From Hydrolagus colliei (Eukaryota), in the NCBI GenBank assembly GCA_035084275.1, contig CM068756.1, positions 9,424,001 to 9,488,000 of the forward strand: 64,000 nt of DNA, given 5' to 3'. The notes under the pieces are model-generated. The model was not told the origin of the DNA, searched no databases, and worked only from the letters and a program-made list of their open reading frames with translations. Shown in pieces: positions 1 through 47,820 of the stretch; the first letter of the stretch is position 1; each line of letters opens with the position of its first letter. The position numbers and the translations under genes were made by a program.

Positions 1-656
1 AAGTAGTAATTTTGCTTCAACTATATTTTAAACTCAAGGCACTTCTGACTCCAACATGCATTACAGGCTGCAGTCTGGTAATCACTCTGGAGTCAGAATG
101 TCTATTGGTCATCAGCCTATAATTTACAATATTCTTTAAGAAAATACAATATTTTTTAGTTTGAAAATCTATTTTTCCAAGAAGTTACCTACCATTGAAA
201 TTTTTTATTTAAAATATATTTGAACTAAACAGAAGAAATGCGCATTCAGACAACATAAAATAGGCTACCTAAAGAACATGAATGTTTTGCTGTTATTTTT
301 ATGCAAATATATTACATTAAAGAAACTCATCATTTAGGATGAAAAAATTAAACATTTTATGACAAAAGATCACACTCAAAATGTTAAGTTGTCTTTTTTC
401 TTTCAGATTCTGTTCAACTTAGATGTGCAGCATTCTTAAATTTTAACTAACAAATATGTGTCTGGGATTTACATTTTTTTGGTCATTTTCGCTAAATGGT
501 GGATATATTTTAAAGTTCATTTGAATTTGAAGGTGTACAAAATACAATAGTTTGGTAAGAAAAGAAAGTACAATACTTTCTTCATGCTAAGATAAGATAT
601 TATTTACTCATACATATTATTTCATTGTATTGCATATTACTATTGCGTATTGCATA

Positions 657-1558
657 GTAATAGTAAATAGTGAGGAGGATAGTAGCCATCTGCAAGAGGA
701 TATAGACAAATTGGTAAAGTGGGCAGACACATGGCAGATGAAGTTTAATGCAGAGAAGTGTGAGGTGATGCATTTTGGGAGAAGAAATGAAGGGAGGCAA
801 TATAGGCTAGATAGTACCATTTTAAATGGTGTGAAGGAACAGAGAGACCTGGGGATTTGTGTTAGTGACTCGTTGAAGGTGGCAGGACAGGTAGACAAGG
901 CTGTTAAGAAGGCATATGGGATACTAGGCTTTAGAAATAGGGGTATAGAGTACAAAAGTCAGGAAGTGCTGACTAACCTCTATAAGACTTTGGTGAGGCC
1001 TCAGCTGGAATACTGTGTTCAATTCTGGTCACCACACTACAGAAAGGATGTGAAGGCATTGGAAAGGGTACAACGAAGATATACTAGGATGGTGCCAGGA
1101 TTGAGGGACTTCAGCTATGAGGAGAGGCTAGATAGGCTAGGGTTATTCTCTCTGGAGCAGAGAAGATTGAGGGGAGACCTAATAGAGGTTTATAAGATCA
1201 TGAGGGGTTTCGACAGGGCAAATAGAGAAAAACTATTTCCACTCGTGGGTGAATCTGTGACTCGTGGTCACAGATTTAAAATAGGTTCAAGGCGAAGTAG
1301 AGGGGAGCTGAGGAGAAATTTTTTCACTCAGCGAGTTGTTCGAATCTGGAATGCATTGCCTGAAAAGGTGGTGGAGGCTGATTCGATAACAACTTTTAAA
1401 AGGGAATTAGATCTTTATTTAGGGAGAACAGGTCTATTAGGCTATGGGGAGCGGGCAGGGCAGTGGGATTGAATCGCTCTTTTCAAAGAGCCGGCACAGA
1501 CTAGATGGGCCGAATGGCCTCCTTTTGTGCCGTAAAATTCTATGAATCTATGAATCTA
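657..1558 (+). mobile_element. CR1/L3 LINE, 5'-truncated: C-terminal part of ORF2 reverse transcriptase plus 3' UTR and tail
   Basis: ORF 630-1472 has CR1 motifs (WQMKFNAEKCEVMHFG, YKTLVRPQLEYCVQFWSP, LEQRRLRGDLIEVYKI, FFTQRVVRIWNALP); 3' end has GGGCCGAATGGCCT and an ATTCTATG/AATCTATG repeat tail. Confidence 0.95.
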
Positions 1559-2480
1559 ATCTATTTGATAATGGCTCAGTAAAATAACTGCATGTGAAAC
1601 AATTTTGCTGAAACTGTTGTTACTGAATATGTTGTTTAATTCTCACCATTACCGGTAATTCAAAAGCTGTCATGTTTTCAAATGATTTGATAATATTTGA
1701 AGGAATTTGCAGCTTTGGAGCTTTAATGGGGAGCTCAAACCTGTACCTAGCGGGCAGATACATTGCAGATTTTTTGTCAACAATTACATTTGCAGCTTTG
1801 GCAATACAACACTGATGACTACTAAAAAAAACAAAAAAAAGTACAGTACATCAATTTTATGAGTAATTTTCTGAAGCTAAGGTAAAAGTATATTTTGGTA
1901 GAGCAAAGAAAAACTTTACTGCGCATTTAGTCTGTAACTTCTGCCCCAAATTGAAATTCTTCCATTTCCAGGTAATTACATTCTCACCTGACAGAGAACT
2001 TGCAGAGCCAAGCTCACCTGCCTTTAATAAGTGAGATTTCCAGATGTTCATCAGATTGCTAGCTGTAACATTGTGAGTTACATGAACATTCCAAGAAATA
2101 CAAAGGAAAATCCTCAGTCCTAAGCAATCTAAAGAGACTGAAAAATGAAGAAAATATAAATAAAAAACAAGCCTGGCAGGGAAACCAGTGGCAAACCCTA
2201 ATGGATGTTAACCAACCTATTGGTGCCATGCTTTGTCACTTAATTAAATTCAGCCCTCCTTATAAGTACTGAAGTTCATAACGCAGCAAACATTTTGTTG
2301 ACTACTTTTCAATGGCATTTGATCTACCATGGGTGACACCAACATGCACATTAGAATTTAACTATGAAAAAGGGTAGAGAACTACCTTTATTTATGTTTG
2401 ATAATAAAATAATCTACCTCAAAAAGTTATGACTCATTCCTGGATTGGTCATTTGGAAGTAAATAATAACTCAAATTCAG

Positions 2481-2655
2481 CAATAATAAATAATCCTTGC
2501 ATTTAATATAGTGCAAGTTCAAAATATCACAAAGTACTTCACAGAATATACTGTAAAGTGAATTGACTGAATATTTTGAGGGCGAAACGTAGAAGCTAAT
2601 TGCGAACAGCAATGTCCCACAAACAGTCATGGACTGAGTGACCAAACTATTTTTT
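2481..2655 (-). mobile_element. 3' half of a tRNA-derived Deu-type SINE
   Basis: (TAA)n tail, CCTTGCATTT and CAGCAATGTCCCACAAACAGTC core shared with the full copies at 12218 and 50723. Confidence 0.85.
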
Positions 2656-4009
2656 TTGATGGATTATCTCTGGAAAAGCGATCTGCCAATCGACTAACAA
2701 GCAGGATACTGCCCCCTCCCCACATATACATGTAAAACCTACTCTTAGAATGGCAACAGTTGCAATTTTAAGCTAGAGTCACATACCAATGTTTCTCATC
2801 GTATCAAATCTGTCACTTAACTTAATGTCCTGCTCCTTTGCCCTAGTCACCAGTTAGGTGTCTTGTATTGGCATGTCTTCATAGAGTCAGTGGTCCAACA
2901 GAGTTTGTAATTAGGTTGATGTACAGCACCAGTGCACTCATTATACTGAGCACTCGGAAGACTGCCCCTGAAAGAAAGCACGAGTGTGGGGTATTGTGAG
3001 AACCTGGTGGTTCAGCCAGCCAAGGGATTGGAGGCTCAGCAGGTCTCAATGTCGGTACTGATTTAATATAGCACTCATTTTAAATGTAGGAATCAGAACA
3101 GGATCATGCAATGAGGAAACTGAATACTATTCTCAAAATTCAGAGTTGCAAATTATTTATGCAGAACATTATATAACTAAACAAATCCATCAGAATACAA
3201 AATCATTCTTGTAAATTTTATTTTGGCTTCATAGAAGCACAGATTGTGGCTTAATACAAAAACTCCATTGACTTATAAGTTTCACCAACTTCTTTTGCCT
3301 AGTTTATCATAACTCAGTTTCATACTGACCAGCAGAAATTATTTCAGATTTTGTCTTACTTAAAATAATATATAAAACTATTTTATAACAACATTTGCTG
3401 TATGCTGGGAGTTGTAGTTTGATAGCAGACACAAAATCCAGTGGACGTGGAATCAGATTCCAACTCTCAGCATGCATAGCAAGGCTTTTAGCCAACCAGA
3501 AAACAGAGGCCACTCTTAGAAATTCACGTTCCCTTGGTAACCGTCCTTTGCTGTCAGACCATCAATAACAGATCAGTCTATAGAGGCTTATTAATTCATT
3601 AGAATTGTTGCAATTTACTCAAATTTTACTCAACCAAATTACTAAAAGAAAAAGGTTTCAGATCTTATGCAAACTAATACAATATAGTTTATTTGCCCAT
3701 GGAAAGCTATATTCAATGTTAAATGGAAAAGCAATGTATCTGCAATACATTGCAGAAGCTTAGTAGATTTGGTTGAGAGGGAGAAAACTGTCCAAACTTA
3801 AATGAACAATGTAAGAGATGAATTTCAGTTCTCATCTTAAGAGGTAGCAAAGTACTGAGTCTGCACTCCAAAAGTTATTTCAATCACAAAAATGTTCAAC
3901 AATACAACTGTGGTTTGCACTCTGAAAAGTATGCGACAAAAGTACTCAATACTTCAGGTATGCTGGATAGCACCTAACGCTGACTTTCCTGCCTTCACCC
4001 TCAACACTG

Positions 4010-4300
4010 CTGTCCTGAATGAGCCTTAATTTTCTCTAACTCAAGAGTCGACAAACCCGAGACGATTCTGCTCCACTTCATTTGGTTCCACCACTAGCCG
4101 CTCTCTCCAGTCTTCACAACTCTGATTCATGCCCCTTTCCCACTCCTCCTCACAAACAGAGATGAGCTTTCAGCCAATTTGACATTGCTTTCTGAAATCC
4201 CTCTCTCCAACATGCTCTTACCTTTTTACCTTTTCTGCTTTCAAAACCCGATTAAACACCTATCACTTTGACATTGCCTTCAGCTGTACCCCCACCTCCA
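4010..4300 (+). mobile_element. Degenerate L2-like LINE 3' fragment
   Basis: Pyrimidine-rich; gctttcagcc...tttcaaaacc...cactttgacattgcctt resembles the AFS..LWN..FK..LKT.LF end of L2 ORF2. Confidence 0.4.
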
Positions 4301-5329
4301 ATACTCCCCTCCCAGACTCGAGTTCCCATTCCCAAGTGGCATAACTATAATAGTACAGTTAGGCTAGGGACAACAAGGCTATGGCGGCCCAACCCATTGA
4401 TTGGGAGAGTTATCGTGGTGGAAACATACCTTTGTCCCGTCCCATTCACCCACCCCCACCCCCCGCCTGCTAATATTTGAGCCATATTAGAAATATCTAC
4501 CTGTGTTTTGGACTCAAAGCCAGTTGTTTTTAATTCAGAGGCTCCACTGGTCCACTCCCAACAAATTCCTCCATTTCCTTTTATGATATGGCTACATCAG
4601 CCTGGGGAGAGAATATGACTTGTGGTCTCTCACTCTCCATTTTGAACAAGTATGCGCTTTGCCGGGGAAACAGGGAACATAACACAAGGAGATGGATTGG
4701 GAGACTTTTTTCCAAAACGGTAAAGATAAGCAAAATTTTTGATTTCAGAACCGGAAAGGGGCCTCTAAATCATTCGTGTACCAGGGACTCTTGAGGCCTA
4801 GTTACCCCATTGCCTCTCTGCTTCTGTAAATTTCGTTTTTAGACCGTGAATTTTTTTTATTTTTTCCAACCGTGAAGGGTATCATATGAATGCAAACGGT
4901 TGTTTTTGTAGAAAAAAACACAATTCCAGTGATGGGGTATTTTTTTAAAGTGCTCTTTCAAGGTACAATACCAATTCTAATAAAGTACATGGAAGCATTT
5001 ATGTATTTCAAAACATATATCGACTTAAAATTCAAATCATCATATTTTGTGGATGGTGTGGATTATTCTTTGCATTTTCAGGCCATCCTACCTCTGACAA
5101 GTGATCTTTCTGAGCAACATGCAGCATGAAAGAAATATTTTATTCCATAAACGTAAATCATTAAAAGGTGTGCTCTGATCTCAAAATGACTTTTGGCAAC
5201 ACCTCACAGAACAAACAGCTCCTGCATTAATATTAAAGCTGTTTTATGTGTATATGATATAAATGCCGAAGTAAAAAAACATGAGAGAGCAAGGCTATCT
5301 ATCACTTACAGTAGGCCCATTTGCAGTCG

Positions 5330-6080
5330 TCACATTCAGATAGGGCACTGAATTTTCTAATGATCTGTTCATAAGCAGCAGCATTTCATGACCCAGCAGT
5401 GAAGAATGGAAAGCCTCCTGCTATGAGCTGAATGGAACCCTTTAGTTGGCTCCTTGAAGAGCTCATTTTCGCATTACTCAGGCTTCATTATGCTGAATCA
5501 ATATTCGTTTAGTCACTGAGGTTATTGACATATTTTAAAATAAAAGTATACCCTTCAGCTATTGCACTCATTACAGGTAATTTGTCTTGTCAGGGAGCAG
5601 GGAATATTATCGCAGTCTTTCGAGGACTGACAGCTCATGGAAATACCTCCCCATGGTTACAACTGTAAATAATTTTGTGGTAAAATATTGAAAAATCAAT
5701 GACTGTTTCCTGCAATCTGTCACAAACAAATCAATCATAATCTGCACAGTCAGGGAGTGTGATATAGGGAGGGAAGGGAGCAGATGCAATCTTCCAGTGA
5801 AATCTCTCATTTCAAAATCACTTCACATAATGGTGTCATCATTTAAACACTTAACAGTCATTGGAACTGCCGCTCACAGCGTGGAATGGGAAAACCATGA
5901 GAAGGAGAAAAGCCATCACTGTTGTATAAACAAACATTTAATTTAAATGGCTTTTGCATTAGCTGGTTGTATAAGTGAGGCCAACTACCTGTCAATATTA
6001 CATAGCAGTTTTTCTGCTAATCAATTATGTATGGCTCACATGAAGCACATGAACAATTTCACTGCAAATTAGCTCCTGTA
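5330..6080. promoter_or_regulatory. Candidate conserved non-coding element in a Sowah intron
   Basis: Repeat-free; Pbx-Hox TGATTGAT (5730-5737, -) next to Meis CTGTCA (5717-5722); TGACAG at 5628; many TAAT cores. Confidence 0.45.
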
Positions 6081-7737
6081 GGAACTTAAAGACTTTGATA
6101 TTCATAGGTTCTATAAAAGTAAGAATTCGACTTAACTGTTTTTGCTAGATACTATGAATATTGTTATTGCCTTACTCTAGTCTTCACAAAATAAAAATAC
6201 CTGTAGTGAATATGTGGCATATCAATTTAATCTGATAAGTAATGAATATATGAATTCACAATAGCATTCTATAGAGTCATATGTATCTATGAGCTGTATA
6301 ATAATCCAGTGCATTGTGGAAAAAAAGCACAGATGACTTGTCTTTCACCTCAAGTCACAGGTTTCAATACCCATAGGAGGAAGATGATGAAAAAATCTCT
6401 GTCTATTGCCGGAGGCCAAATGTATTGGACTGGCGACTATTATGCAGCTACTTAGAGGACTAAAGGTTTTGTGAACAACATGGAACAAAACATTGACAGA
6501 TACTGCATAGTGCACATACTCAACTCTGCCATGGATTATGGATGTTTCTCTGCAGTTTTTTTTAGTTTTTTTTAACCCAAATAATATTTGTCTCTTATGT
6601 TCCCTGGTTTCCCACATTTATATACTGGCTTTATATCATCTGAAAAGGCAAAGTAAAATGTATATAAATGATATAATCAATACTCAGCTACAATTGTTTT
6701 TGAAACTGACCAAAATCCCAGTTTGAAACTGACCATTTCACCCAGGAGTACAATATATATTATATATACAGTATATCTATATTTGTATGTTCATGTATAT
6801 TTCAATGTTTCTCCAAGTGTACTACGTTTCTTTTGATTACAAATGCCTTGCAATATTGTTTGAATTTATTTATCATTAACAAAGTACTACTGTAAAGTAT
6901 ACAGTACTGTAAATTTATATAATTATAATTCATGGTAACCTGTGACATATTATTTTAAGTTCTACATAACTGATTTGCACTGAAGAATCTCAATCAATGT
7001 AAAGCAGCATTATTGGAAATAAAGTTGATAATTATGCCTGCCGTGAATTTTTATATATACTTTATTCACATAAGTGTGAAAAAAAAGTTGTACATTTTCG
7101 AAGGGATGCTTTCCGTGCTAAACAGAGCCTTTACTAATTGTGAAAATCATCTTATTTGCTGCAGCCTTATGCTGGAAGTCTCATCTGGCAGAGAATCATG
7201 CATCCAGGGAGGCAAGATTAGGGAGTTCAAATGACAGGGGAAAGAGAAACAGTACTTCACTTCTGAGAGGAAAGTTAGAGGGTACCGCTGGTATCGACCT
7301 GCTAAATATTTAAGTATACCAACAATATAATTTGGGGGGCAAGGTGGCGGAGAGATAATGCTTAATATTTCTAACAGGTGAGTTCAAAACCAGGCCCAAA
7401 CAATGTGCTAAAAGTTGCATTGCTTCACTGGCTCTAAGGGTGAAATTGTTTGTCTCAACTGTTTGTAATAATCACAGCACAGTGTGAGAGAAGCCATAAG
7501 AATGACTAGTCTGGGAATGAAAGGTCACACTGATATGTTAGAGGTTCTCTGCTGTGAGTGCAACTGACATACATTGTTGGGTATTAAGAACAGAATAGAA
7601 CAAGCCTCACAGCATAGCTTAGAAAAGAGCAAACTTTATACCACAACTTGTAGCACATGATATAAACATAGGAAGTGTTCACTTCCCTAGCACCAATATA
7701 CAGTATTTCACTTTAATGAACATAAAACATCTTAAAC

Positions 7738-7866
7738 AAAAACAGAAGTCACTGGGAACACTCGGCAGGTCAGGGAGCATCTATGGAGAAAGGAAAGTAA
7801 GTAAACGTTTCAGGTCCACGACCCTACTTTCCAGATTTCCAGCATCTGCAGTATTTTGCATTTTGT
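7738..7866. repeat. Short chondrichthyan-type interspersed repeat remnant, possibly Penelope-associated
   Basis: aaaacagaag..ctgggaacactcggcaggtcagggagcatctatggaga..aacgtttcaggtc..ccagcatctgcagtattttg resembles a common shark repeat as I recall it. Confidence 0.4.
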
Positions 7867-8177
7867 CAAAACATCTTAAAGTTAATGCAATAATAGAAGG
7901 ATATTAAGCAGGATCTTCATTGTTAATACAGCAACATGTTTCACAACTGGAGCAGGTTCCCAAATGAAGCTGTCTATGCATGAGTAGTCTAGACAGATAT
8001 TTCAGGTAAGAATGGATCAACATATATAGAAAGGGAGCCTAAATGTGCAGTAACAGTGGTGTGACAGAATGCAGCATTGATTAAATAAACTCCTGTGTTG
8101 CTAGGGTTTCAGGCCTCCCTTAAAGAGATTGCTCTGCCTCATCCCATCCCTTGCCTCCTTCAAGGACCTCCTCCTTA

Positions 8178-8420
8178 TGATAATAATAATAATCCTTGCA
8201 TTTGATAAAGCACTTTTCACATCTTCTAGACATCTCAAAGCACTTCACAGAATATAATGTAAAGTGAATTGACTGTACATTTGTGGGTGAAATGTGGCAG
8301 CCGATTGCGCACAGCAGTGTCCCACAAACTGTCTTGGATTGAAATGACCAATGTTTTTTTTGAAGAATTCTTATTAGGCATGCGGAGTAAGGAAATTTGC
8401 CTAAGGTTTCACCCTAATTT
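8178..8420 (-). mobile_element. Deu-type tRNA-SINE lacking most of the head
   Basis: (TAA)n tail, GCAGCCGATTGCGCACAGCAGTGTCCCACAAAC core, ATTAGGCATGCGGAGTAAGGAAA linker as in the 12218 copy. Confidence 0.88.
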
Positions 8421-8582
8421 GCTTTTATTTGACCATGCTTTTGATCTACCTCCTTCCGCCTCTGCCCTCCACCCTCCCCAATTCCTACTCCAGCTCAGGT
8501 CTCGAATACTGTCTGTCCAGTGCCTTGGGAAGTCCTCAAGATGTGAAAGATGTGATACAAATGTAATTTTGTTGATGTTGCT
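8421..8582 (+). mobile_element. L2-like 3' end with (TTG)n tail
   Basis: tttgaccatgctttt...gtgccttggga...gtgaaag..atacaaatgtaattttgttgatgttg. Confidence 0.5.
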
Positions 8583-11500
8583 CACCTATCTTCTGGAATC
8601 GAGAAGAAATTTTCCATACCAGCCTTGGGATTTCTTGGTTTTCTCTATCTTTTTCTGGAAAGGTGGTGTGGTGTGGTGAAAGGAAGAGGTGACACCCGGG
8701 TGACCAATAAACAATAAAGAATAGTCCAAGTACTGTATTGGGTGTGATGGACAATAATGTCTATCACAATGATTTGAAATCTTGTAGTACACTAAAACAA
8801 TTAGAAAAAAGTGTTTATAAAAGTTGATATTGTGCAAACCGATGCAATTTTTCACTACACTTTGCAAATTTCGCAATAAAATAAATGGGACATATGGCCC
8901 ACCAAAAGTGCAATTGCTTCCCAGCAGTTAGCATACTACAGTACAATGGCACTTTTCCAATAGCTACTTTTCTTTCACTTAACTAATAAAAAAAACTTTT
9001 GAAATCTAATCCCATGAGTCAATGTAAGTCAAAAAAGTACTTTACTTAATTAAAAAATTTAAGTCATTAGCAGACTTACTTTCAGCCTGTAGTAATATTT
9101 GAGATGTAAGGATTTCAAGCTTATTATATATTGCAGCAATTATAAATTGGCACCTTGAATTCCATGTATAATTTTTAAAAATTCAATAATGACTAGAATC
9201 ACTTTGCTGATGAAACAGGCCACAGATTTTTTTCTGTTTCATCAGCAACACTAAGTTTACAGCACTACCCAATCTGGTTACAATAAAGAAATAAAACAAA
9301 CATTATAACAGATGTTGGATTTAATAAACTGAATATTTTAAATGTGTGAATATTTTAAAAAGGTTTAGTGGGTTAATTCAAAACACTTATAAATAATTGG
9401 AATGAACAAAGATAGTGTCATTGTAACAAACCAAATAAATGAGAACGAAATCATATGAATATTAATTGTTTTTGAAAATAATATGTTGCCAGATTCCCTC
9501 TCAATCCTTACAAATTAAATAACATATTTTACTATTAATGTTAAATAGTGTCAAAGCCACATGTTGGGTGAACAATGTAAATGTATTCTTCTATGCCAAA
9601 CGTAAACCTTTTATTTGATCATGGCTTTTATAACAGATTGTGACATTTCAATGAACTCTCATAAAACAGTGACATATTAGTAGATATGTAACATTGTTTT
9701 TGAAACTTTCTCTGATGAAGATCATCTGCTAATCAAACAATGATTGCCTGTCACATGGTGTTAACAAATGGCACATACACAGTGATAGCACATCTTTAAT
9801 TCTCCATCACTGCCATTTTAAAACAATACATACAGTACTTGGGTACAGAGCCTTAATGGTTGCTTAAAATTTAGCAAGTAGAGATTCTGATGCAGGTAGA
9901 GATTCTGGTGTAGACATATTCTAAGTAGAAGAATATATTCCTTCAGCTTCCAAAACTCGTGTTCAATGTTTTTTGCCATGAATGCACCTGTTGCGCAAAA
10001 ATACCAACTTAATAATATAAAAATATACGTTATCCTGACAAATACCAGTGCGATATGTCAAACCTGAGTTTATTCCACAAGAATGATACAAATGTATTTT
10101 CCTAATCTGATCTACTTATGTAATAATTATACTGTACTTGCATTTGATACAGTGTCATATAAAGATGTCTAGGTGCCTTGGTGTCAGGCTCAAGTACTGT
10201 ACTCTGAAACACTATACTAATCATAATGCTTCATGGGATATACCGCAGAAGTGGTGTGACTGTATTTTTGGCCAAAAGCACAATTCTCATATCACATCAT
10301 AGATAGGTTATTTGATTTACAATATGATTTCTTTCCCATTAACACTTTTCATGCTTCTTGATTTATTTTGCATTGATAACAGTATTGAGCTTGTTTTAAA
10401 CTATTGCAACAAAACAATTGCCTTCTAAGACTATGCTACCATTTAGTGTTTGACTTCTGGCCTGCTTAAGTCTCGATTGGATCACTGCAGACCTGACTGG
10501 TTTTGCGAAGCATCCTTAAGGTCAGTTGAACCCAAGCAAAATCCTGCTAACCTCACTTCTCCCAAATATCCAGATATTTTAAACCTTGCATCCATTTTAT
10601 CATCCGTAAAATGGTACATTATAGTATATTCAAACCAGCTCAACTAAATTACCTGGGATATTAGGTTATGAACTGTGATCAATTTGGTGTCTTAGATGTG
10701 GACTGCCTTCAGTTAGCTGAACAAATAAAGCAGTGATCAGATAAATTTGCATCTCAGAAAGACACGAGGAAGAAAAAGGTTGTGCTGAAGAGATCAAGAA
10801 AATTATCACCATCGAAGGTATATGATCTCTGAGGGAGATTTTGGTGGACTTTAAATTGATATGGATCGAGCTCATCGAGAGATCACCATCATTTTTATGA
10901 ATTTGTAAATGAAACTTACATTGGTATCAGTGACCTGGTTCTTAAGGAAGATCACAAATGATGTGATACTTTCATGAATAGGCCTGAACTCATCATAATC
11001 GGACTTCAATTTCTTGTTAATCAATCATTGGTTTCTGGGAATCTAGCTGTCGCTGGACACTAATTTTTAAGACTGGGTTGTACACTACTTTTTAAATAAA
11101 ACCATTACCCCCAATTTTCTAACTTGTCTTTACTATTTTCGTTACGAAGATTAAGGTGAATAATATTTTGAAGGGGAGAATAAGAAATACAAAGAAAAAT
11201 ATTATTAACGGGACTATAACATGAAAGTCCTCAGCTCTACAAAATATATTTAACTAGGTTTTCTTCCATGATGTATATGGAGTTGTCATACACATGTATA
11301 ATATTAGTCAGCAAAAAAACAGCCTTCAAATATTTTGTAACAAAATGACAAAAAGAACACAGGACAAAATAAAAAACTTTATAAATATAAATGTCTTTAT
11401 TTGTGAATTTTAAACAGTGTTTAATGTTTTCACTATTACACTCTGTGGCACAAAATAGCACTAAATATTAAAAATGGGTGAAAGACTGTACCATGACAAT

Positions 11501-12217
11501 ATGACATCACTGGTTCTCAAGTTAGTGAAACCCAACAAATAAATTTGTTGAAATCATGCATTTGGATTTTAAATGGATGGAGAGAAGCATTCTCTATATA
11601 TAATGAAGAGACAAAATTCCATCTCACACATATTTATGTTAAAATAAGTTCACAAACAGAATGGCGATTTCGCTAGACATGAACACAGTTCTCGATTTAA
11701 AAAAAACGTTCTTCCAACAATACGTTAAAAGAGTTGCAGCCAATATTTCTGCTTTCATGACATACTCTCACATTTGTTCATGCTGTTAATTAATATAATC
11801 ATAAACACCTATTTAGACATTCCGCGTCTAACCACCGTTATCAATCATAACAACCACAAAATCCATGATTTACACTTAAATATACACTCAATGATAAGAC
11901 ATTAATAATCTTGCTTCTATATAATAATGTCAATACATCTAAACAGGTTGTAAAGCAAACTAAGTTGGAAGTGAACCGAATTTAATATAATTATAAAACA
12001 CTCAATGTTCTAACATTAATTGAAATGCAACCTGGAATTTTTGATCAAATTACATAACAACCCACCAAAAATGTATGTTATAAATACATATGAGTATATA
12101 CGTTAATCTTTTGCCTATAAATGGACATAAGCCAAAAATATTGTAAGAACATAAGAATTTGCTAGACAAAAGAAGACCAAGGTCCATTTAGTAACCTTCC
12201 ATCAACCTGGAAGTCAC

Positions 12218-12549
12218 TTAATAATAATAATAATCCTTGCATTTGATACAGCGCTTTTCATATCTTATCGACATCTCAAAGCGCTTCACAGAATATACTG
12301 TAAAGTGAATTGACTGTATATTTGATGGGCGAATCGCAGCAGCCAATTGCGCACGGCAGTGTCCCACAAACAGTCGTGGATTGAAATGACCAATTTTTAT
12401 TATTGTGTTTTTTTTGTTCGACGGATTTTTATTAGGCATGTGGAGTAAGGAAACATGCCCACAGTTTTGCCCTGATCTGTCTTGATTCGAACACAGGTTT
12501 CACTCTTGTAAGGCCAGTACTCTAACTGCTGAGCTACAGGAACTCCACA
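12218..12549 (-). mobile_element. Full-length tRNA-derived Deu-type SINE
   Basis: Minus strand starts GTGGAGTTCCTGTAGCTCAGC (A box), then GTTCGAATC (B box), Deu-like core and (TTA)n tail; abuts a CR1-type tail at ~12145-12215. Confidence 0.9.
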
Positions 12550-12588
12550 CTCGACATGTTGTGTCCCAAACTATGTACAATAACTTAC

Positions 12589-12763
12589 TGGGTAGCCCTT
12601 CCTGGGTAGCTTCTTGGAGTGCTTAAACTGTATCCCAAGATACTATTTTCTGGCAGAAATGATTCTAATTTGTTCTTTAAACAAAAAAATATTCTGCTTC
12701 CGGTATTATTATCATTATTGTTGAGCACATGTAACATTTTGATCATTGCATTTGTTCCAAAAC
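12589..12763 (-). CDS. Candidate internal exon of the Sowah-like gene (phase 1 to phase 2)
   Basis: tttatttcag acceptor, CA|gtaagt donor, open frame FGTNAMIKMLHVLNNNDNNTGSRIFFCLKNKLESFLPENSILGYSLSTPRSYPGRAT; no homology recognised. Confidence 0.3.
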
Positions 12764-13599
12764 CTGAAATAAACGACTGGATCTGAAAAGATCAAAGAAT
12801 CACATATATGAGCAAACAACTAAAGTAATTACAGCTAATCGATGGATAGTTTTCACTATTCTTGATGAATCATTGTTCATTTAATTCATTGATCATTTAT
12901 AGCCAAAATGCATTTAAAAAGTGCTTGTAGAATTAATCTTTGACAATGAATCAGTACAATAAAGTTAGGATAAAATTAAATGAATGTCAGACTGGACTCT
13001 ACAAGTTAAGATGAAGTATATTTAGCATGATGGATATCCTATAGTGATTACAAGGTAGTAATCCCATTAACAGGTTCAGATGACGTCATAACCACAAGAG
13101 TGGAACTCAAGCACTTGACAACTGTCATTTGAACCCCACAACAAGATTACAACCTTGAAATCATTTCCATGCATTCATTGGTTTAATAATTCAATTTCAC
13201 AAGATGAAGGGGTGCTTTGGTTCTATTTTTTTCTTCATAGTGGATATTAAAGCACATAACAAGACCCATAGCATTTCACATAGTTTATGTTTGATGACAG
13301 TTACACTGTTCTGATAATACCACTACCCATTTATTGATTGATAACCAAAAATTAATCACTGCAATATGTCCTTGAGGTTTGATTAGAAAAATATCATCAA
13401 ACTCACATTTTTCTACTTAAATACTGGGGGTGTTGGAAATGTGGGAAATATAACTGTTAATCTGTGTTTCATTCATTTCAATGGCACATTCCAATTTTCA
13501 ACAGAATTTACAAATATTTTAATCATTAAATGGCTTCTGCTACACTCCCGTTTTCACATTAAAATCTCATAAATTCCAAACGTCAATTTTTTTTAATAC

Positions 13600-13945
13600 C
13601 AACTATTCTCTATGCTGACTTTCCAGTGAAAATAAGGAGAACTGCATTGTTGGAGGTGCCATCCTTCAGATCATACATTAAACTCTATCAACCTATTCAG
13701 GTGGATGTTAAATAACTCATTGTACTATTCAAAAAGAGAAGAGGGATTCTTCTGGTGAAGTGGTCAATAATCCTTCAGAGAAATTGGTCACTTGCCTCCT
13801 GGCTGTTTGTAGAACCTTCTGTATGCAAACTAACTGTTATGTTTGCTTAAACATACACAATCACTGCTTTTTCGTACTTACCTGTGAAGGACTTTGAGAA
13901 GTTGGGATATTACTGGAGCTATATCAAATGCAATGGTTATTATTA
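13600..13945 (+). mobile_element. Old DeuSINE copy (SacSINE1/AmnSINE1-like)
   Basis: gcattgttggaggtgcc..cttcagat..gtggatgttaaa..ctattc..gctgtttgt Deu-domain pattern, degenerate tail. Confidence 0.7.
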
Positions 13946-15525
13946 GGAGAATTATTATTTCATTAGGGAATAAGATGAAAATCTACTCATCCCTAGAAAA
14001 GCTTTGACCACGTGCTCAATGTACTTTTCCTGAGAATTTGCTCTTTTGGACACTTTTAGTTAGAGTAATGCTGCTTCAAACCCTTTACATAGTGGCTTGT
14101 GTGGCTATCTGTAATGAGTATGTGGACCACAAGGGACTAATTAATATCCTACCGCCAGTAGAAGCTACTTGTAATCGATAAGCAGCTCATTTGAGGTAAA
14201 GACATTTTTTCTGTCGAGTAGTGTATACCGGAGCTGTAATTTGAGGTCAGAATTGTGTTTTTGAAAATATGAACCGGTCCCACCCTTCCGCACCAGTCAG
14301 TGGTATTAACTGTACCTATAATTTGTCATTTCTCTAGTTAGGATGTTCAGTTCCTAATTTTGACATGTAACTGAGAGGTAAGAGCCCTGGAGGACACATC
14401 GAATATCAAGTATATGTCCTTAGACAGGCTGCAAAATAGCAATACGTGAACTGTTCCCAAGGCATTTTTTCACCCATCACTACACAAACATATCAACAAA
14501 CAAATCCATCATCAGCTAAACCACCCATGCGCAATTATATAGGAAGTAGAAGTGACATCCTCAAAGAGTTGGTTTCGATCCCAACAAAATATGGTTGACA
14601 ACTCATTGCATTAAACCCTTAGTTATTTTTAAATATAGTGTTGTAATACCAAACATGGACAATTCATGAAAGTTATGAAAAGTATTGTAGCTGTCTTTAT
14701 GACCTTTAGTTTTCTATTATGTGCTGTAAATTATATGTAATTTTCTATTTTCTGACTGACAAACAGGAAACAAAAGTCATAATTTGGGAAGAGACTTGGA
14801 CTGTTACTATAGGACACAAAACCACAACTCTTAAATAAATCTATACAAGCTAGTATTTTAAAATTATAAAGAACTCAAAAAACATAGAATCATTACTGGA
14901 CAACAAAATATTCTTCCAAACAGGATTTGAGTTATTGTTCTTAACTTATGCAAAATTATATTTTCATATTTCCAGAGTTACCAAAAAATACAAAGAAATT
15001 TAAAAACACGTAGTAATTAAGATTTCAATAGATACTGTACTGTATTTAGAAAATTAATTCATTATTTTTTGTAAATCAATTATGTCTTTAGAGTTTCTGA
15101 TTCTTGAAAGAGTCTCCCTAATCACTTTGTGGTGGAATTTATTCCAAATGATAAATATGAAGTCCTTAAAATACTGTAAGACAGTATTGGTAACACTGCA
15201 ATACTGTATATACAGTACTTTAAATGCTTCCAGCACTGTGTAAAGTAATGATGATGTTCAAATGCCAGGAAATGTCAACATCATAACATTTACCCTTAAA
15301 AGTCACAATAGGAGCTTGATATGTTGGGAGTACATCTTTAAATAAAAACACATCAAAATAAATATCAATGTAGCAAAAACACTACTCTCATTGATCAATT
15401 GATAAACTTTATATTGAAACAGAATGTTTACTTACATGTGTTTATATTTATTTACATTTGTTTACCAAAGCAATACTGCATTTTCGAAACAAATTAAACC
15501 ATGAAGGAAATGGACAAATGTGGGG

Positions 15526-15597
15526 TCACAAATCCAACTGCAGATGCTGCTTCTGATGACTTATAAATATAACATACTTTTTAGTTTTAGAGGGATC
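15526..15597 (-). CDS. Candidate Sowah exon 3, DPSKTKKYVIFISHQKQHLQLDL then stop
   Basis: Phase 0 after cattag; resembles the Sowah DPDGTKYVVL motif that follows the exon 2 segment; weak pyrimidine tract, 127-nt intron. Confidence 0.35.
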   Translation of the reverse strand, partial: DPSKTKKYVIFISHQKQHLQLDL

Positions 15598-15724
15598 CTA
15601 ATGAATTTTTTTCAACGCTATATGCTGATTATGTCCACACAACCCAGCAGACTTGCTAAAACAAAAAGAAATTATAATATGATATCTTGCTTATATTGAA
15701 CAGAAATAAACAGAACAGCCTTAC

Positions 15725-15786
15725 CTCTTCTTCAGTGATAATACCAACTTTTGAAAGGACATCTCTGAATTGTTTTCGGTTTCTGT
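15725..15786 (-). CDS. sowah2: Sowah-family gene exon 2
   Basis: ctttatttttag acceptor and GAG|gtaagg donor; 62 nt, phase 1 to 0, in frame with exon 1; (D)RNRKQFRDVLSKVGIITEEE fits Sowah RxxFKxxVNxVAxVxxE. Confidence 0.75.
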
Positions 15787-18387
15787 CTAAAAATAAAGAT
15801 ATTAAAAAAAGTTTATTTTATTAAGAAGCTTTCATTGCCAGCTGGATATATGCAAAGATATTAGTTATTGGTTTAACGATAACTAAGTTACTGATAAAAA
15901 AAGTTCAGCGCAAAATGTTTTATTTTTCCTTTATTAGTGTATTATCCTGGGAGTCAATAACCATCATACATTCTCCTTTCACCAGGATAGGATGATCTGG
16001 ACCTCCATTCATGTTCATCACAATGATTATCCTACAGGAGGTGCATTTACAGTCAGGCGAGCCAAATATGTCAGTTTTAATACCCCCTCCCCACCATCCC
16101 ACCTCCCTCAACTTGTCCAAGGTGGAACATCTTGCCATAGCATGGGGCTCCATCTACTGTAGCATCCCAGCCAAGAAATGATGAAGTTCACTCCAAACAG
16201 TGGCAGACAAACTTGACTGGCAGACACAACTGGCACTCCAACCCACAACCATCTGTTTGTGAGGCAAGTACTTTACCACCTGTGCTAGCAATGCACATAA
16301 TAACTATACATCTTTGTTACAGAATTCCAAGATTTCAAAGGTGCAATTGAACAAGCATACATGGAATTAAAAACATTGTGATTTCTGGAGGGAAATATAA
16401 TTTCATTAAAATGATATCAGTGTTTATATCAATAAATATTTGAAGTGTTACTGACATGCTCCTATAATCTAAGCACAGAGACTGGGCATAAAGGCATGAT
16501 GTTACTTAGAGAATACAGCTCAGTGAGAAAATAAAAGGCTTCCATTTCTGTTCACTCTTACCTTTAGGCAAATATGAAATTAAAACAGTAGCCACACCAA
16601 TATCAACTTCTATCTAGAAAACATCCTTATTATTTGAGTGTTGCAACAATTGTTGCTCATTTTACAAATTGGGACAGATTTATATAAAAAATACACCTTG
16701 GCTACACAAAACAATTGATAACAGACTCTTTTTTTAAGTTATTTTCCATTTTCCAGCACTAAAACAACCTGAAAATAAAAGTGACTCCACAAACAATTAT
16801 AGTAACCCACTTATAAAAGAATACCAAAAGATGTGACAGTTCTTACACTAATTTGATCAGTGATTTTCTATAGCAAATGGAAATTTTGATTTTCTAAAAG
16901 TTACTACATAATGAGTGCAGTACTATACTGCATTATATAATAATTATTGTCAAATGAAAATAAATCTCAATACCATTATCTAAAGACAATCTTAGAGGTT
17001 ATATAATATATATTTTTAAATCATATTGTGCCAGAATAATTTGTCCCAACTCATCAATGTGTAAATTTATTGTTAAAGTTTCAGAAGAATACACATATTG
17101 CTGATCAATACTAACATTATCTATCCATTTTGGTCATGTTTGTTTTGCAAAAAATACCTGACTAGAAACTGCGTGACTCACTGCAAATCTGCATTGTTTG
17201 ATTTAAGTAAATTTAAGCTTTATATAATGGTAGGAGCAGACATTTTTGCATCAGAACAAGTTTTCCAACTGAATAGTTAAATGCTACCCTCAATGCTCAA
17301 TGTTAAGCACAAATTGATTCATACTGTAACAAAGTTCATATAATTCACATTTTAATATTTTAAAATATTAAAGAGTTAAAGTCAATATTTAACAGATGAA
17401 GTAGCCAATTAAATAGCAATAGCTAATTACTGATATATCTTAGTACAAGTTTCAGATTTGGAAAATACAAATATTAATGTAGCTCTTACATTGCCAATAT
17501 ACAAATTATTATGAAACTATAATGCTATAGTATTTATTTTGGATATCTCTAAATATTCAACGGATTATTAACAGAATATGCAACACCATTTAAATGGTCC
17601 ATTTTAGTCCACCGAGTACTTTGTATTTCTATTCAACGGTAATAAAAGTAGGTTTGTTCTTTTTGACATGTCCTGCTGTAATTGTATGCCTGAAAAGTAA
17701 AATTGCAGACACGAATATTGCAGAATTAAACTACAGTAATTCAATAAGCCAATTTGCAAGCTTTACACAGACGTGTTCTCAAATACTGTGCTGTAGGGAA
17801 AAAATTACAATTAAAATTAAAAAAAGTCAGTTATTCTTAGCGGAAAGGAAAATGTAACTTTCCAGCAATTGAAGCACCACATAAAACCGAGAAAAGTCTG
17901 TTTACTCAAAATGCTGCTGAAGAGTGCCAGTTTAATCAAAGCAAGCAATGTGGTCCGTAATCAGGGCCATTATAAAATAAGGAGCAAGTTTCCGTTGACG
18001 GCCCTGGAGCGTGTACGAAAAGAACAGCAGTTTCACAATTACTTTCCGTGTCCTAACAAAATCACACGGACAACTTCAATGTCTCTCTCGCTCTCTCTGC
18101 CTGTCCATCTCTATATACTGTATAGATATAGGTTTCATGCTATTCTAATGACGTCGAAAATAAAACTTAATGCAAACGCGGAGAATTAATTGCTGGCCAT
18201 TCCTCCCGAATTCGGAGTCAGTAAAGGAACGATTAATTGTCCAATGAATTGATGAAGAAGAAGACGAAAATAGAAAATAAAATGAACAAACACGAGTTCA
18301 AAGCCTCCGGGCTAATCCCAGGGATTTAAACTGCGTTTTAAAAAAAACAGACAGCAGGATAGCAGCGACTGTCACCCACTTACTTAC

Positions 18388-18526
18388 CCCTGACGTCTGG
18401 CGCGGCGTGGTACAAAACCGTCTCAAACATGTTGACCAGTTCTGCATATTTTATCTTGCCCCCTCTGTCGTGGAGTAGAGTGAGAATAAAATCCACCTTC
18501 GGCTCCTGCGATGCCGCCGAGGTCAT
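18388..18526 (-). CDS. sowah2: Sowah (sosondowah ankyrin-repeat family) gene exon 1, N-terminal domain
   Basis: ATG at 18526, MTSAASQEPKVDFILTLLHDRGGKIKYAELVNMFETVLYHAAPDVR, G|gtaagt donor; fits Sowah SQE..LDFL...GG.V.NA.L..HF..FL; lies in a CpG island beside an Irx gene, matching known Irx-Sowah synteny. Confidence 0.8.
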
Positions 18527-18584
18527 CCTCCCCCTCCTCCTCCTCCTTCTTCTTCGTTGCAGCGTCTCCTCCTTCCCGCTCACA

Positions 18585-18910
18585 CCGCACTTCCGGTCGC
18601 CAACCGCGTTACCTCGGCAACGACGCAGCAGCCCGGAGGAGCTCGTTTCGTCACCGAGTTACCAATATGCAAATGAGGCAGCCCGGACCACCAATCGACG
18701 ATCATAAGCGTGGGAGGAGCGGGGAAAGGCAATGCGGCGCGCTGCATCTCGGGACGTATAGTTCTTTGCTTGCGTTGGCCTGAGGTGAGGGGGGGGGGTG
18801 TGTGAAGGAATGGGACTACATCTCCCAGGCTGCCTGGTGCCTCCTCTTCACTCCTGCTACTCGTCCATCACTCCCAGATTTTCCAGGCAATGGCAAGCCA
18901 CGTGACCGGC
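18585..18910. promoter_or_regulatory. CpG-rich Sowah promoter
   Basis: ETS CACTTCCGGT 18588-18597; RFX X-box GTTACCTCGGCAAC 18608-18621; CCAAT at 18662 and 18691; octamer ATGCAAAT 18667-18674; ZNF143 motifs 18743-18762 (-) and 18815-18828 (+); CACGTGAC 18899-18906. Confidence 0.8.
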
Positions 18911-18984
18911 GGTGAGCGTTGGCAGTTGCAGCACCTTCAGAGCCGCCCGCAGCAGGCGTCTTCAGCTCAGCCTGGCTCCAGAGG

Positions 18985-19030
18985 CAGAGAGTGAGTGAGT
19001 GAGTGAGAGAGAGAGAGAGAGACAGACTGA
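18985..19030. repeat. (GAGT)n/(GA)n microsatellite
   Basis: Seen directly. Confidence 0.9.
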
Positions 19031-24285: not shown

Positions 24286-24522
24286 ATGTCGTATCCTCAG
24301 GGCTACTTGTATCAACCGTCAGCTTCTTTGGCTCTTTACTCGTGTCCAGCTTACACTACGAGCGTCATATCGGGACCCAGGACGGATGAACTTGGGAGAT
24401 CTTCCTCGGGCTCTGCTTTCAGTCCTTACGCCGGATCTACAGCCTTCACAGCCGCGTCCCCGGGTTATAACAGCCACCTCCAGTACGGTACAGATCCGAC
24501 CGCCGCCTTCACTTCCTACGTG
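24286..24522 (+). CDS. irx5: Iroquois homeobox 5 exon 1
   Basis: [23 protein letters not shown]...AFTSYV is the Irx5 N-terminus; GTG|gtaagt donor, phase 0. Confidence 0.97.
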
Positions 24523-24989
24523 GTAAGTTCTGCTTTTCTTAAGACACCATATTTACAATGTATTCATTATAACTCTTCCACATGACATACTTGGTGCCTT
24601 CCCCCCCCCCCCCCCCCCCACCACCCTCACCCCCCACCACCCCCAGTGATCTTTCAGCAGCTCACATCTCTCTCTCTCTCCCTCTCTCTCGCTTTCTCCG
24701 TTTTTTTAAAGAAAAAACTTTTTGTTTTAGTTGCTGCAGTCTGGTGTTTTATTTGATACGATTCATTTCGTGTCCAGATCAGCGCCGTGCTTTTTTTTTA
24801 ATTGAAAAAAACATAAATGTCATTGAAAAAAAACCTGTAATGGAATCGCATTCGGCTAGCCCTCGTTTTTTCTTAATGTTGTTTAAATGGTTATTTGCAC
24901 TAACTTATACGAACACTCACAGACTAAACGCGTTTGCTACCGACCAATGTGTTTTTTTTTAGTTTTGACGGGTGTTTGTTGTGTCTCAG

Positions 24990-25395
24990 GGCTCTCCCTA
25001 TGACCACTCAACGGGAATGGCTGGATCTATAGGATATCATCCCTACACAGCTCCTTTAGGCTCTTACCCCTACGGTGACCCAGCTTACCGAAAAAATGCC
25101 ACCAGAGATGCGACTGCCACTCTCAAAGCCTGGCTCAACGAGCACAGGAAGAACCCCTACCCCACCAAAGGCGAGAAGATCATGTTGGCCATCATCACCA
25201 AGATGACCCTCACCCAAGTGTCCACCTGGTTTGCCAACGCCAGGAGGAGGCTGAAGAAGGAGAATAAAATGACCTGGACGCCGAGAAACAGGAGCGAAGA
25301 CGAGGAAGAAGAGGAGAACATAGATCTGGAGAAAAACGACGACGACGAGCCGCAGAAGTCATTAGAGAAGGGCAACTCGTCGGAAGCAGAGTCAG
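24990..25395 (+). CDS. irx5: Irx5 exon 2: TALE homeodomain and acidic stretch
   Basis: tctcag|GGC acceptor; [63 protein letters not shown]; TCAG|gtgag donor, phase 1. Confidence 0.98.
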
Positions 25396-25808
25396 GTGAG
25401 AAGTGGATGAATATTTTATTTTAAAAGTCATTTCTAATCAAGACGCGGAATTGATCACTTGTTAACGATGGCTTGTTATTTATAATGCACATATGTGTGC
25501 GGATACTACGCACCGATTTTCGTTTGAATCCTAATTATGTTTGACCTACACGTGCCTACAACCTAAAATAGGTTCATATAAGGGGGAAAGCAGATTCCTG
25601 TGTCTGTGCGTATTTTTAAAAAATCATAATCAAACTGCTAGAATTCCTGCTGCATTAAGAAATAAAACTCTCCCGCAGTTTTGAATTTTCCACTGGAGTA
25701 GTGTGAAATAATGCATTTCAAACTAAATGGTTGCCTCTATTTTATTTGTTTCTCTCTCTCCCCCCACACCCCACCCCGCCCCACCACCCCCCAACGGATT
25801 GGAAACAG

Positions 25809-26548
25809 GAGATCCGAAAAGCAACCTGGTCGAAACTCCCTGTGAAAGATTTGAAGATGAAGAACCCAACAGTAAAGAAAGTGAACATATGATTAGCGAT
25901 TCGGAGTTAAAAGACCCCGAAGAAAGGGAGAGCTCAGAGTCGCCCAAAGCCACCACTTCTTCTGTTTCCTCGCTGCTGGTGCCTCACGGAGCCGAGCTCT
26001 TGCAAGAAACCAACGACCCTCAAGTGGAAAACACACGTACAAAGCCAACTCACCCCCCAACTCACAACACGGGCTCCAGCAATGTGACTTCGGTCATCCA
26101 TTCCACACCGGCAGCCACCTCCTCTAAGCCCAAACTCTGGTCTCTGGCCGAGATCGCCACCTCGGACAAGTCGAAAGAACAGAGCGAGCCACAGCAGAGC
26201 ATGTGCCCGGGTCAGGGCTGCCCGGGTGCCGTGTCGGCCAGCAACTCGTCCCCGTCTCACTCCCCCTGCCCTTACCCGAACAGCGCTGTGCTGGGCCGCC
26301 CTCTCTACTACACCTCGCCCTTCTACCCCGGCTACACGAACTATGGCAGCTTCGGGCACCTTCACAGTCACCACGGAAGCGGCTCCAGCACGCATTTCTC
26401 TTCCAATGGATTAAGCCAGACTGTCTTGAACCGAGTAGAGACTCTGGTAAAACTCAGTCCTGAGATTAAAACAAAGAGCCCGGCACAAATAGATCATTGC
26501 AAGGACACGTCATCTTTTGATTTGAAGAAAGGTATGTCGAATATTTAA
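25809..26548 (+). CDS. irx5: Irx5 exon 3: IRO box and C-terminus
   Basis: aaacag|GA acceptor in phase; IRO box KPKLWSLAEIATS; RPLYYTSPFYPGYTNYG; ends KKGMSNI-stop; total CDS 1383 nt. Confidence 0.95.
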
Positions 26549-44507: not shown

Positions 44508-45000
44508 ACAACAAAACAACAACAAAATTACATTTGTATAGCGCCTTTCACTCACATCACGGTGAGTGATGTAGATCCGAGCTGAGTTAGGGATCGGGGA
44601 GGGTGGAAGGAAGGAAGGGAGGGGAAGTGGGGTGACCGAGAGCACAATTGAAAAGGAGGGTCTTGAGGTGTGACTTGAAGAAACAACAACAACAACTTTG
44701 ATTTATACAGTGCCCTCCACACCGGACGGCGTCTCAGAGCGCTTAAGGAGGCTAGCGAAGGGCTGAGGTTGAGGTATTGCGGGATGGAATTCCAGAGGTT
44801 GGGGGCAGAATGGCTGAGGACTCGCCTGCTGATGCTGGGGTGGGTAGTTTGGGGGCCATGGAGCAGGCCAGAGCCCGCTGAGCAGAGGGAGCAGACAAGT
44901 TGATAGGGGATTAGGAAGTCACAGAGCAACTTAGGGTGGGGCAAGGCCATGGAGGGCTTTAAAAGTGAGGACCAGGATCTTGAATTGAATCCTCCGAATG
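44508..45000 (-). mobile_element. L2 LINE 3' fragments (two adjacent tails)
   Basis: Minus frame RRVLSHSAPNLWNSIP matches the L2 ORF2 end; (CAA)n tails at ~44510 and ~44683. Confidence 0.8.
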
Positions 45001-46864: not shown

Positions 46865-47200
46865 TATAAGCATGTGTGAGTATTCCACACTTCTGAGCCA
46901 CTTTTAAACATTGATCTGTAACTGATCTCAAATCTTCTTCCAACTTCATCCTGTAATTAAAGTTAATATTTTTCACATGTATATGCATTACTTTACATTT
47001 ATTCCCTTTAAACAGCATTTGATAATCATTATCCCAAATACCGAGTCCCATGAGAGACCTTTGAAGACTAGCTGCCTCTGTCATATGTGTTGCTATCCCA
47101 CACAATGTTGCACCATCAGAACATTTTACAATTCTGCTTTTGATCCCCTCATCTAGATCATTTATGTAGATTGAGAAAAGTATTGGTCCATGACTGTTCC
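46865..47200 (-). mobile_element. Old CR1 RT fragment
   Basis: Degenerate WDNDYQMLFKGNKCKVMHI resembles CR1 WQMxFNxxKCxVMH. Confidence 0.7.
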
Positions 47201-47607
47201 CCAGGGATCTCTTCTCTCCCTTTTTATAATTATTCTCAGTTTCTTATTGTCACGCTAGTTTTTAATTCAGTTCATGCTTTTTGCGCTAATTCCATCAGCT
47301 TTCACTTTGTTTCCAGTCTGCTGTAAGGTAGATTTGCGAATTCCCTTTAAAAGCCAACATAACTTTGGTAGTAGATAGCCAATTAGATTGAAACCCAAAA
47401 CTGTCAAACTTACTATTTGTAAATAACTGTCGAAAAAAACTGTCAAAAAAAGTCCAAAAAAATGTGTCAAAAAAAACTCCAAAAAAAATTATCAAAAACA
47501 TCGAACTTACTATTTGTAAGTTAGGATCTGCAAAGCTAATAATTGTAATAATGAAATGACAAAGAATAATCCATACTAGTATCCTTTTCAAAGCTTCTGC
47601 CGAATTC

Positions 47608-47820
47608 ACAATAATAATCCTTGCTTTGAGCAGGATGGCATCATTCTTTGCCATCTTATTGTTAGAATTATTAACTTGGTTATTAAAAATAATCTGGGTT
47701 TCCATTTACTGCAAGGTAAACAGAGGCATGTGGAATAAGAAAACATGCCAAAGGAATCACCCTGCCCGAGATTCGAACCCAGATCCTCCCACTCTAACCA
47801 ATACGCTACAGGATCTCCAT
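47608..47820 (-). mobile_element. Rearranged SINE: tRNA head and linker, Deu core missing
   Basis: B box GTTCGAATC on -; aggcatgtggaataagaaaacatgcc linker; aataataatccttgc tail stub. Confidence 0.6.

Follow-up and report, generated by a model that had tools for sequence, protein, structure and literature searches.

Two coding exons in the window

The window, the whole stretch of 64,000 nt analysed here, corresponds to C23:9424001-9488000 and carries the first two coding exons of a Sowah gene on the minus strand and the coding region of an Irx gene on the plus strand. The features are, in window positions:

1..15724, minus strand: part of intron 2 in the window (the whole intron 2 has 31,457 nt)
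15725..15786, minus strand: Sowah coding exon 2, 62 nt
15787..18387, minus strand: intron 1, 2,601 nt, GT..AG, phase 1
18388..18526, minus strand: Sowah coding exon 1, 139 nt (46 codons plus 1 nt), first half of the N-terminal winged-helix-like domain
18588..18621, minus strand: candidate Sowah core promoter, in a CpG-rich patch, 60-95 nt upstream of the ATG
24286..26548, plus strand: Irx5 coding region, three exons, TALE homeobox (PF05920, 68.1 bits)

Exon 1 starts with an ATG in GGAGGATGA context and ends at a GTAAGT donor. The acceptor of exon 2 consists of a pyrimidine tract and TAG, and its donor is GTAAGG. When the two exons are spliced, the phases agree and a 67-aa peptide results. Thus, the reading of the earlier note, which had proposed two minus-strand exons with canonical splice sites and matching phase, was reproduced at the same positions and with the same peptide.

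A protein search with exon 1 gave four matches among ten candidates. All four are products of LOC103176098 of the elephant shark C. milii, 89% identical, all carry PF25877 in precomputed annotation, and the C. milii protein continues across the exon 1/exon 2 junction. Against a profile of 58 Sowah N-terminal domains, from which the clade of the present gene (IrxB Sowah in the following) was excluded, the 67 aa scored 38.3 bits, compared with 6.0 for the best shuffled peptide (500 made, 477 reported). When all six frames of the window were searched with this profile, exon 1 (E 3.5e-4) and exon 2 (E 0.97) were the top two open reading frames. A Pfam scan of the two exons returned PaaX at E 0.16 and no Sowah match because PF25877 is absent from the Pfam copy used. 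The ESM Atlas gave helix-turn-helix clusters, with all leads under 0.9. The proposed comparison of the spliced peptide with Sowah proteins hence supports its assignment to the Sowah N-terminal domain, both by the profile and by PF25877 on the C. milii orthologue. The description of the gene as hidden does not hold, as this orthologue has six RefSeq isoform models.

Both exons are spanned by contigs of one public run, possibly the assembly's own sample, with 0 differences in the exons and 4 in the intron; these contigs show no splice joint at the exon ends, which weighs neither for nor against splicing. Other content of the window comprises a C-terminal fragment of a LINE reverse transcriptase in Sowah intron 2 (591-1469, plus strand), presumably CR1-like, more LINE pieces at about 44500-49200, and an unrelated weak Rfam tRNA match of 33.4 bits (50727-50797, plus strand), probably the head of a SINE.

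Irx neighbours and candidate promoter

We take the Irx gene at 24286..26548 to be Irx5; the name rests on FTO synteny and on likeness to the human protein. Its ATG at 24286 (plus strand) lies 5,760 nt from the Sowah start codon on the opposite strand, so the head-to-head layout claimed before is correct. On one contig (C23), the order is FTO, the Irx3 place, Sowah, Irx5 and a third Irx gene, with the FTO start at 8.966 Mb, the head-to-head Irx gene at 9.449 Mb and the third Irx gene at 9.685 Mb. This arrangement supports the assignment to the IrxB cluster. Of the order Irx3-Irx5-Irx6 expected downstream of FTO, two Irx genes were recovered together with FTO itself; no Irx3 homeobox was, and its place falls on a gap.

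Only five Irx homeoboxes are present in the assembly. Those of Irx3 and Irx1 were not found in it, and each expected place holds a gap of 200 N within a CpG-rich island (C23:9121197-9121396 for Irx3, C2:54966581-54966780 for Irx1). A duplicated non-coding element of 1.18 kb with 77% identity (C23:9132518-9133671 and C2:54979284-54980434) lies close to both gaps, at distances of 11 and 13 kb. Downstream of the C23 gap is a 3'UTR-like stretch with a poly(A) signal. Because the gaps sit in CpG-rich islands near the same duplicated element, the absence of Irx3 and Irx1 is attributed to likely assembly gaps, and a true loss of both genes was rejected.

The candidate promoter contains the only RFX X-box match (18608-18621) and the only ETS-type match (18596-18588) of the window, for which 0.42 and 0.23 matches, respectively, are expected in a shuffled window. 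Between 18588 and 18680, matches to RFX, ETS and octamer motifs are clustered upstream of the Sowah ATG. CpG o/e is 0.95 in 18001-20000. Sowah and Irx5 have separate CpG-rich patches, and the spacer between the two starts is AT-rich with a CpG o/e of 0.35-0.39. Given the distance of 5,760 nt and this AT-rich spacer, a single short two-way promoter does not fit the locus. Judged from its motifs, the stretch 18588..18621 is likely the Sowah core promoter.

The complete gene and its microexons

We aligned the C. milii protein with the genome and obtained ten exons of ordinary size, all on the minus strand between C23:9442526 and 9258645, among them the ankyrin exons that had been expected to the left of the window. 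With the microexons described below, the gene has 15 exons over 184 kb, thirteen of which lie left of the window:

C23:9408267-9408013, minus strand: exon 3
C23:9375408-9375286, minus strand: exon 4
C23:9350106-9350044, minus strand: exon 5
C23:9334886-9334764, minus strand: exon 6
C23:9319822-9319811, minus strand: exon 7, microexon of 12 nt
C23:9316227-5, minus strand: exon 8, microexon of 3 nt
C23:9312757-5, minus strand: exon 9, microexon of 3 nt
C23:9299725-9299639, minus strand: exon 10
C23:9296533-1, minus strand: exon 11, microexon of 3 nt
C23:9296240-38, minus strand: exon 12, microexon of 3 nt
C23:9292884-9292812, minus strand: exon 13
C23:9264932-9264837, minus strand: exon 14
C23:9258832-9258645, minus strand: exon 15, with the stop codon

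The frame is open over 410 aa without a stop or frameshift, all 14 introns are GT-AG, and 364 of 409 residues are identical to C. milii isoform X1.

Two short pieces of the protein were missing after the protein search, and a scan of the introns supplied them as one 12-nt exon and four 3-nt exons. The 12-nt exon reads exactly as in C. milii. The 3-nt exons encode Gly and Phe in the first loop and His and Gly in the second, each placed between AG and GTAAGT. In the 6.75-kb interval concerned, AG-NNN-GT[AG]AG occurs at two sites only, His and then Gly, as required by C. milii isoforms X1 and X2, and the 182,649 nt of intron contain no more than 2 further AG-NNN-GTAAGT sites. For the Gly microexon of the first loop, weaker competing sites are present at 9319664 and 9316396. 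An extra AG-Gly-GTAAGT site upstream of the 12-nt microexon (C23:9322634, minus strand) is either a chance match or a sixth microexon. The Phe microexon is used in none of the nine C. milii proteins seen and is used by gar and teleost members of the clade; in fishes and caecilians, database isoforms drop microexon residues singly. Splicing of the gene in Hydrolagus is predicted from the RefSeq models of the C. milii orthologue. UGC motifs near a microexon acceptor are a neural-microexon signal. We found them near the acceptors of 5/10 microexons and 3/18 ordinary exons, a difference too weak to claim.

In PMC8042270 (Table S4), Drosophila sowah (FBgn0036302) is listed with FlyBase microexons of 12, 3, 3 and 6 nt (ME119, ME3, ME2, ME19). 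They correspond to a 12-nt exon, a 3-nt Gly exon and a 3-nt aromatic exon in the same order, followed by a second short unit, which is one 6-nt exon in Drosophila and two 3-nt exons in IrxB Sowah. Hence, the microexon layout is old. Our literature search, whose reach did not extend to the key Maeso 2012 paper and its supplements, returned no paper on Sowah microexons, and it returned none on 3-nt microexons encoding single amino acids.

Predicted protein

Three parts are predicted for the protein: a winged-helix-like domain at the N-terminus, an acidic linker that is disordered, and a set of four ankyrin repeats. In the model of the C. milii orthologue, calculated with a 61-sequence alignment, residues 11-74 and 221-340 mostly have a pLDDT over 90, and the linker between these domains is of low confidence. 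Residues 11-74 form a helix, a strand, three helices and two strands; the winged-helix label is taken from Pfam and UniRef names together with this topology rather than from a fold match. Residues 221-340 are ankyrin repeats, for which Foldseek returns ankyrins and Ank_2 scores 54.6 bits in the C. milii protein. A sequence search of the PDB gave ankyrins only among the 60 matches listed. A single-sequence fold of the shark orthologue had a pLDDT of 39, too low for use. In the C. milii model, residues encoded by microexons map to the loops that precede ankyrin repeats two and three. The IrxB Sowah protein likely works as a protein-binding adaptor, on which these would be adjustable loops.

Sowah genes in the same genome

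Four intronless SOWAH genes are located on C1, C6, C19 and C21, with 47-52% identity to the ankyrin part of IrxB Sowah. Their loop lengths correspond to the form with all microexons included; the parent message therefore likely held all five. IrxB Sowah does not match the SOWAHA-D retrogene type, which has a single coding exon and is unlinked to Irx.

A second intron-bearing Sowah was reconstructed with an open frame at C26:7099603-7135043 (C. milii XP_007910542 / V9KW91). This gene spans 35 kb and lies in tandem with, and 14 kb upstream of, an Irx gene (region to 7149800), which we take to be Irx7; IrxB Sowah, in contrast, spans 184 kb and is head to head with Irx5. The two genes share 15 exons, 14/14 intron phases and the same five microexons, which supports the intron-containing nature of the gene claimed before. 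Exons 2 and 7-14 are of equal length in both, with exon 2 of 62 nt flanked by introns of phases 1 and 0. The N-terminal domains, however, are only 28% identical. No collinear non-coding blocks common to the C26 locus and IrxB were evident among five unique blastn blocks. As RFX, ETS and octamer motifs are absent from the 600 nt upstream of the C26 paralogue, the regulation of the two intron-bearing copies may differ.

In the ankyrin tree (38 rows; shark and bowfin were omitted as too short), IrxB Sowah lies outside the retrocopy clade and groups with C. milii, gar and teleost proteins at 94/89, which is below the starred level of the tool. This IrxB-type clade is sister to the Irx7-type clade, and the intron-bearing sister clades are separated from the retrocopies at 99/97. 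The N-terminal tree has 20 rows and an unsure root; one teleost and one retrocopy were omitted as they had no domain match. Here, the stem of the IrxB clade measures 1.02 changes per site, and the tips in cartilaginous fishes are short. From these branch lengths, the N-terminal domain of IrxB Sowah appears to have changed fast once and then held. The earlier description of the gene as unusually diverged is therefore apt for the N-terminal domain and not for the ankyrin part, where the path is 0.46 compared with 0.68 for the paralogue. Among chimaeras it does not apply either, since identity to the C. milii counterpart is 89.0% for IrxB Sowah and 86.2% for the C26 paralogue.

Comparison with the IrxA cluster

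We compared 534 kb of IrxB with 670 kb of IrxA by blastn. Among the unique blocks, 15/21 are collinear; six of these lie in Sowah introns (4, 8, 9 and 10) and one just behind the Sowah stop codon. The 6/21 non-collinear blocks are probably repeats, and some short blocks, e.g., one of 81 nt at 9358210, may be repeats as well. In the 670 kb upstream of Irx2, a protein profile gave no Sowah coding trace above background (best 8.3 bits, reversed control 7.0), and an exon-by-exon DNA alignment of the 15 exons with IrxA gave no remnant above the reversed control. The blind exon scan also missed the one fossil exon described below, which is visible only in the anchored alignment.

For one element shared by IrxB (C23:9296340-9297230) and IrxA, the alignment extends over about 890 nt and includes the His microexon. 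The IrxA twin keeps the CAT codon with the GTAAG donor core, the pyrimidine tract and a branch-point-like motif, and does not keep the AG acceptor. The fossil single-codon exon is located at C2:55155081 (minus strand) in the conserved element C2:55154900-55155740. There are 13 occurrences of the CAT-GTAAG 8-mer on that strand within the 670 kb, and the flanks of the His microexon are themselves conserved; the 8-mer match alone is therefore modest evidence. The His fossil places a former Sowah gene in IrxA. The collinear copies of intronic elements, the stretch behind the stop codon and the microexon together argue that Sowah was there before the IrxA/IrxB split. The intronic elements are putative Irx enhancers.

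Survival of the gene across vertebrates

We picked 72 clade proteins by a motif derived from the listed matches; these are gene models, and the counts are lower bounds. Among the matches listed, at least 17/72 contain the N-terminal domain (nine from C. milii, six from gar and one each from shark and bowfin). At least 55/72 are without it; most of these are teleost proteins, and they include a partial sturgeon model and one unnamed protein. Only C. milii models among the 72 join both domains including the last ankyrin repeats; the shark, gar and bowfin models end before these repeats. No lobe-finned member of the IrxB-type clade was present among the matches listed (120, 120 and 150 rows). As these data consist of gene models and listed matches, erosion or loss of the IrxB Sowah copy in other vertebrates is only suggested.

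Caecilian proteins (Rhinatrema, Geotrypetes; among them XP_029470390 and XP_033819349) fall into the Irx7-type intron-bearing clade, and their isoforms differ by single loop residues, as microexon skipping would give. Caecilians thus seem to keep an intron-bearing Sowah, which does not fit the notion that all tetrapods lost the parental gene. The earlier statement that tetrapods replaced the linked gene by retrocopies agrees with the published view and would need an exception for these two caecilians.

In human, the same place is taken by CRNDE, which, according to PMC3509318, lies on the opposite strand head to head with IRX5, has its conserved parts in introns, reaches high levels in testis and brain and shows a correlation with IRX5 (R = 0.72). 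The same text shows differences from Sowah, as CRNDE is non-coding, starts about 2 kb from the IRX5 start and shares one CpG island with IRX5. We propose as a hypothesis that CRNDE may descend from Sowah. No paper on a CRNDE-Sowah link was found within the reach of the literature search, outside which lay Maeso 2012 and its supplements, and CRNDE, SOWAH, C5orf38 and IRX are absent from four supplement files of PMC5577775.

Discussion

The two exons in the window most probably begin an intact 15-exon, 184-kb Sowah gene that takes up a large part of the DNA between the Irx3 place and Irx5. This gene probably represents the IrxB-linked copy from the vertebrate genome duplications and is likely pinned by Irx enhancers in its introns; we assign this reading a probability of about 0.85. 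Transcription of Sowah would start at a CpG-island promoter of its own, some 5 kb away from the Irx5 promoter. The five microexons (12, 3, 3, 3 and 3 nt) would encode the two hairpin loops that separate ankyrin repeats; skipping them would remove single residues from these loops and thereby adjust binding. The intronic elements would act on Irx3 and Irx5, so that, as we propose, the gene cannot move, and the four intronless retrocopies would make its coding part dispensable. Pinned elements and a dispensable coding part would explain why IrxA is without exons and still has the elements, and why the gene seems to be trimmed in other lineages. IrxB Sowah is likely the most complete survivor of a copy eroded or lost elsewhere in vertebrates.

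The gene could also be real and kept beside Irx5 for its own sake, in an Irx regulatory landscape or by a divergent promoter, and be co-expressed like CRNDE. The head-to-head layout and an N-terminal domain that changed fast once and then slowly in cartilaginous fishes fit such an own function, as do the place and direction of human CRNDE and its IRX5 correlation (PMC3509318). However, the distance between the start codons with its AT-rich spacer speaks against one short promoter serving both directions, the motifs ahead of the Sowah ATG resemble a promoter that works autonomously, and IrxA lost the exons and kept the elements, so we regard this explanation as unlikely. Far less probable still is a decaying pseudogene whose exons persist only through the slow change of chimaera genomes or through enhancer overlap. 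Proteins of the clade without the N-terminal domain, early-ending shark, gar and bowfin models and the long stem in the N-terminal tree would agree with decay, but 410 codons are free of stops and frameshifts, splice sites and microexons are kept, identity to C. milii exceeds that of the paralogue, and C. milii has six RefSeq isoform models.

It is likewise very improbable, and already largely refuted, that the gene is a later duplicate of the Irx7-linked Sowah inserted into IrxB instead of an ohnologue in its ancestral place. Sister clades of intron-bearing genes (99/97 against the retrocopies) with the same structure would be expected from such an event. It is contradicted by the IrxA collinear copies of intronic elements, of the post-stop stretch and of the microexon with its flanks, and by the orientation of Sowah to the Irx3 place, which is that of the paralogue to its own Irx gene.

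The IrxB copy can be compared with known systems. The orthologue in C. milii is LOC103176098, "ankyrin repeat domain-containing protein SOWAHC-like" (XP_007887669.1, isoforms X2-X6), with common junctions and common loop residues encoded by microexons; RefSeq names it after the retrogene SOWAHC, from which it is distinct. Maeso et al. 2012 (Genome Res 22:642) reportedly used elephant-shark and teleost data, so the IrxB copy is probably described there already, and the supplements may hold an exon map and remnants. PMC5803294, PMC8793726, PMC12311624 and PMC3342872 present the Iroquois-Sowah regulatory block, and Kerner 2009 (PMC2674049) the Irx-Sowah linkage. In the model given in the first three, Irx enhancers in Sowah introns outlast the exons once retrocopies exist. 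The present locus resembles this block in its intron-bearing Sowah within an Irx cluster, conserved intronic elements, intronless retrocopies and remnants after loss; in the Hydrolagus genome, both intron-bearing copies and all four retrocopies coexist. A search for Sowah in the elephant shark found no paper on the IrxB Sowah gene in the literature as far as it was accessible. The basic finding is not new, as the block and its survival in fishes are published and the orthologue is in RefSeq. The most valuable additions are the map of all 15 exons, the fossil microexon in IrxA, the unequal survival of the two domains, and the proteins of caecilians, which do not fit a loss in all tetrapods.

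Taken jointly, these observations would allow a wider reading, which we put forward tentatively and consider rather unlikely. Chimaeras would hold the last complete two-domain IrxB Sowah, and elsewhere the gene would have been dismantled piecewise: teleosts without the two exons of the window, other fishes without the 3' ankyrin exons, IrxA with a fossil single-codon exon in an enhancer, and mammals with the promoter end as the cancer-linked non-coding RNA CRNDE. Tetrapod loss would be incomplete, as caecilians would keep the other intron-bearing copy.

The IRX3-IRX5 gene desert is tied to FTO and obesity genetics. The full exon map represents the ancestral content of this desert and lets enhancers and dead exons be told apart among the conserved tetrapod elements there. 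Three stages of the block are present in a single genome: intact in IrxB, compact in the Irx7-like locus and erased but for elements in IrxA. Two questions thereby become directly testable, namely whether CRNDE arose from Sowah and whether exons of one codon adjust the binding surface of the ankyrin repeats.
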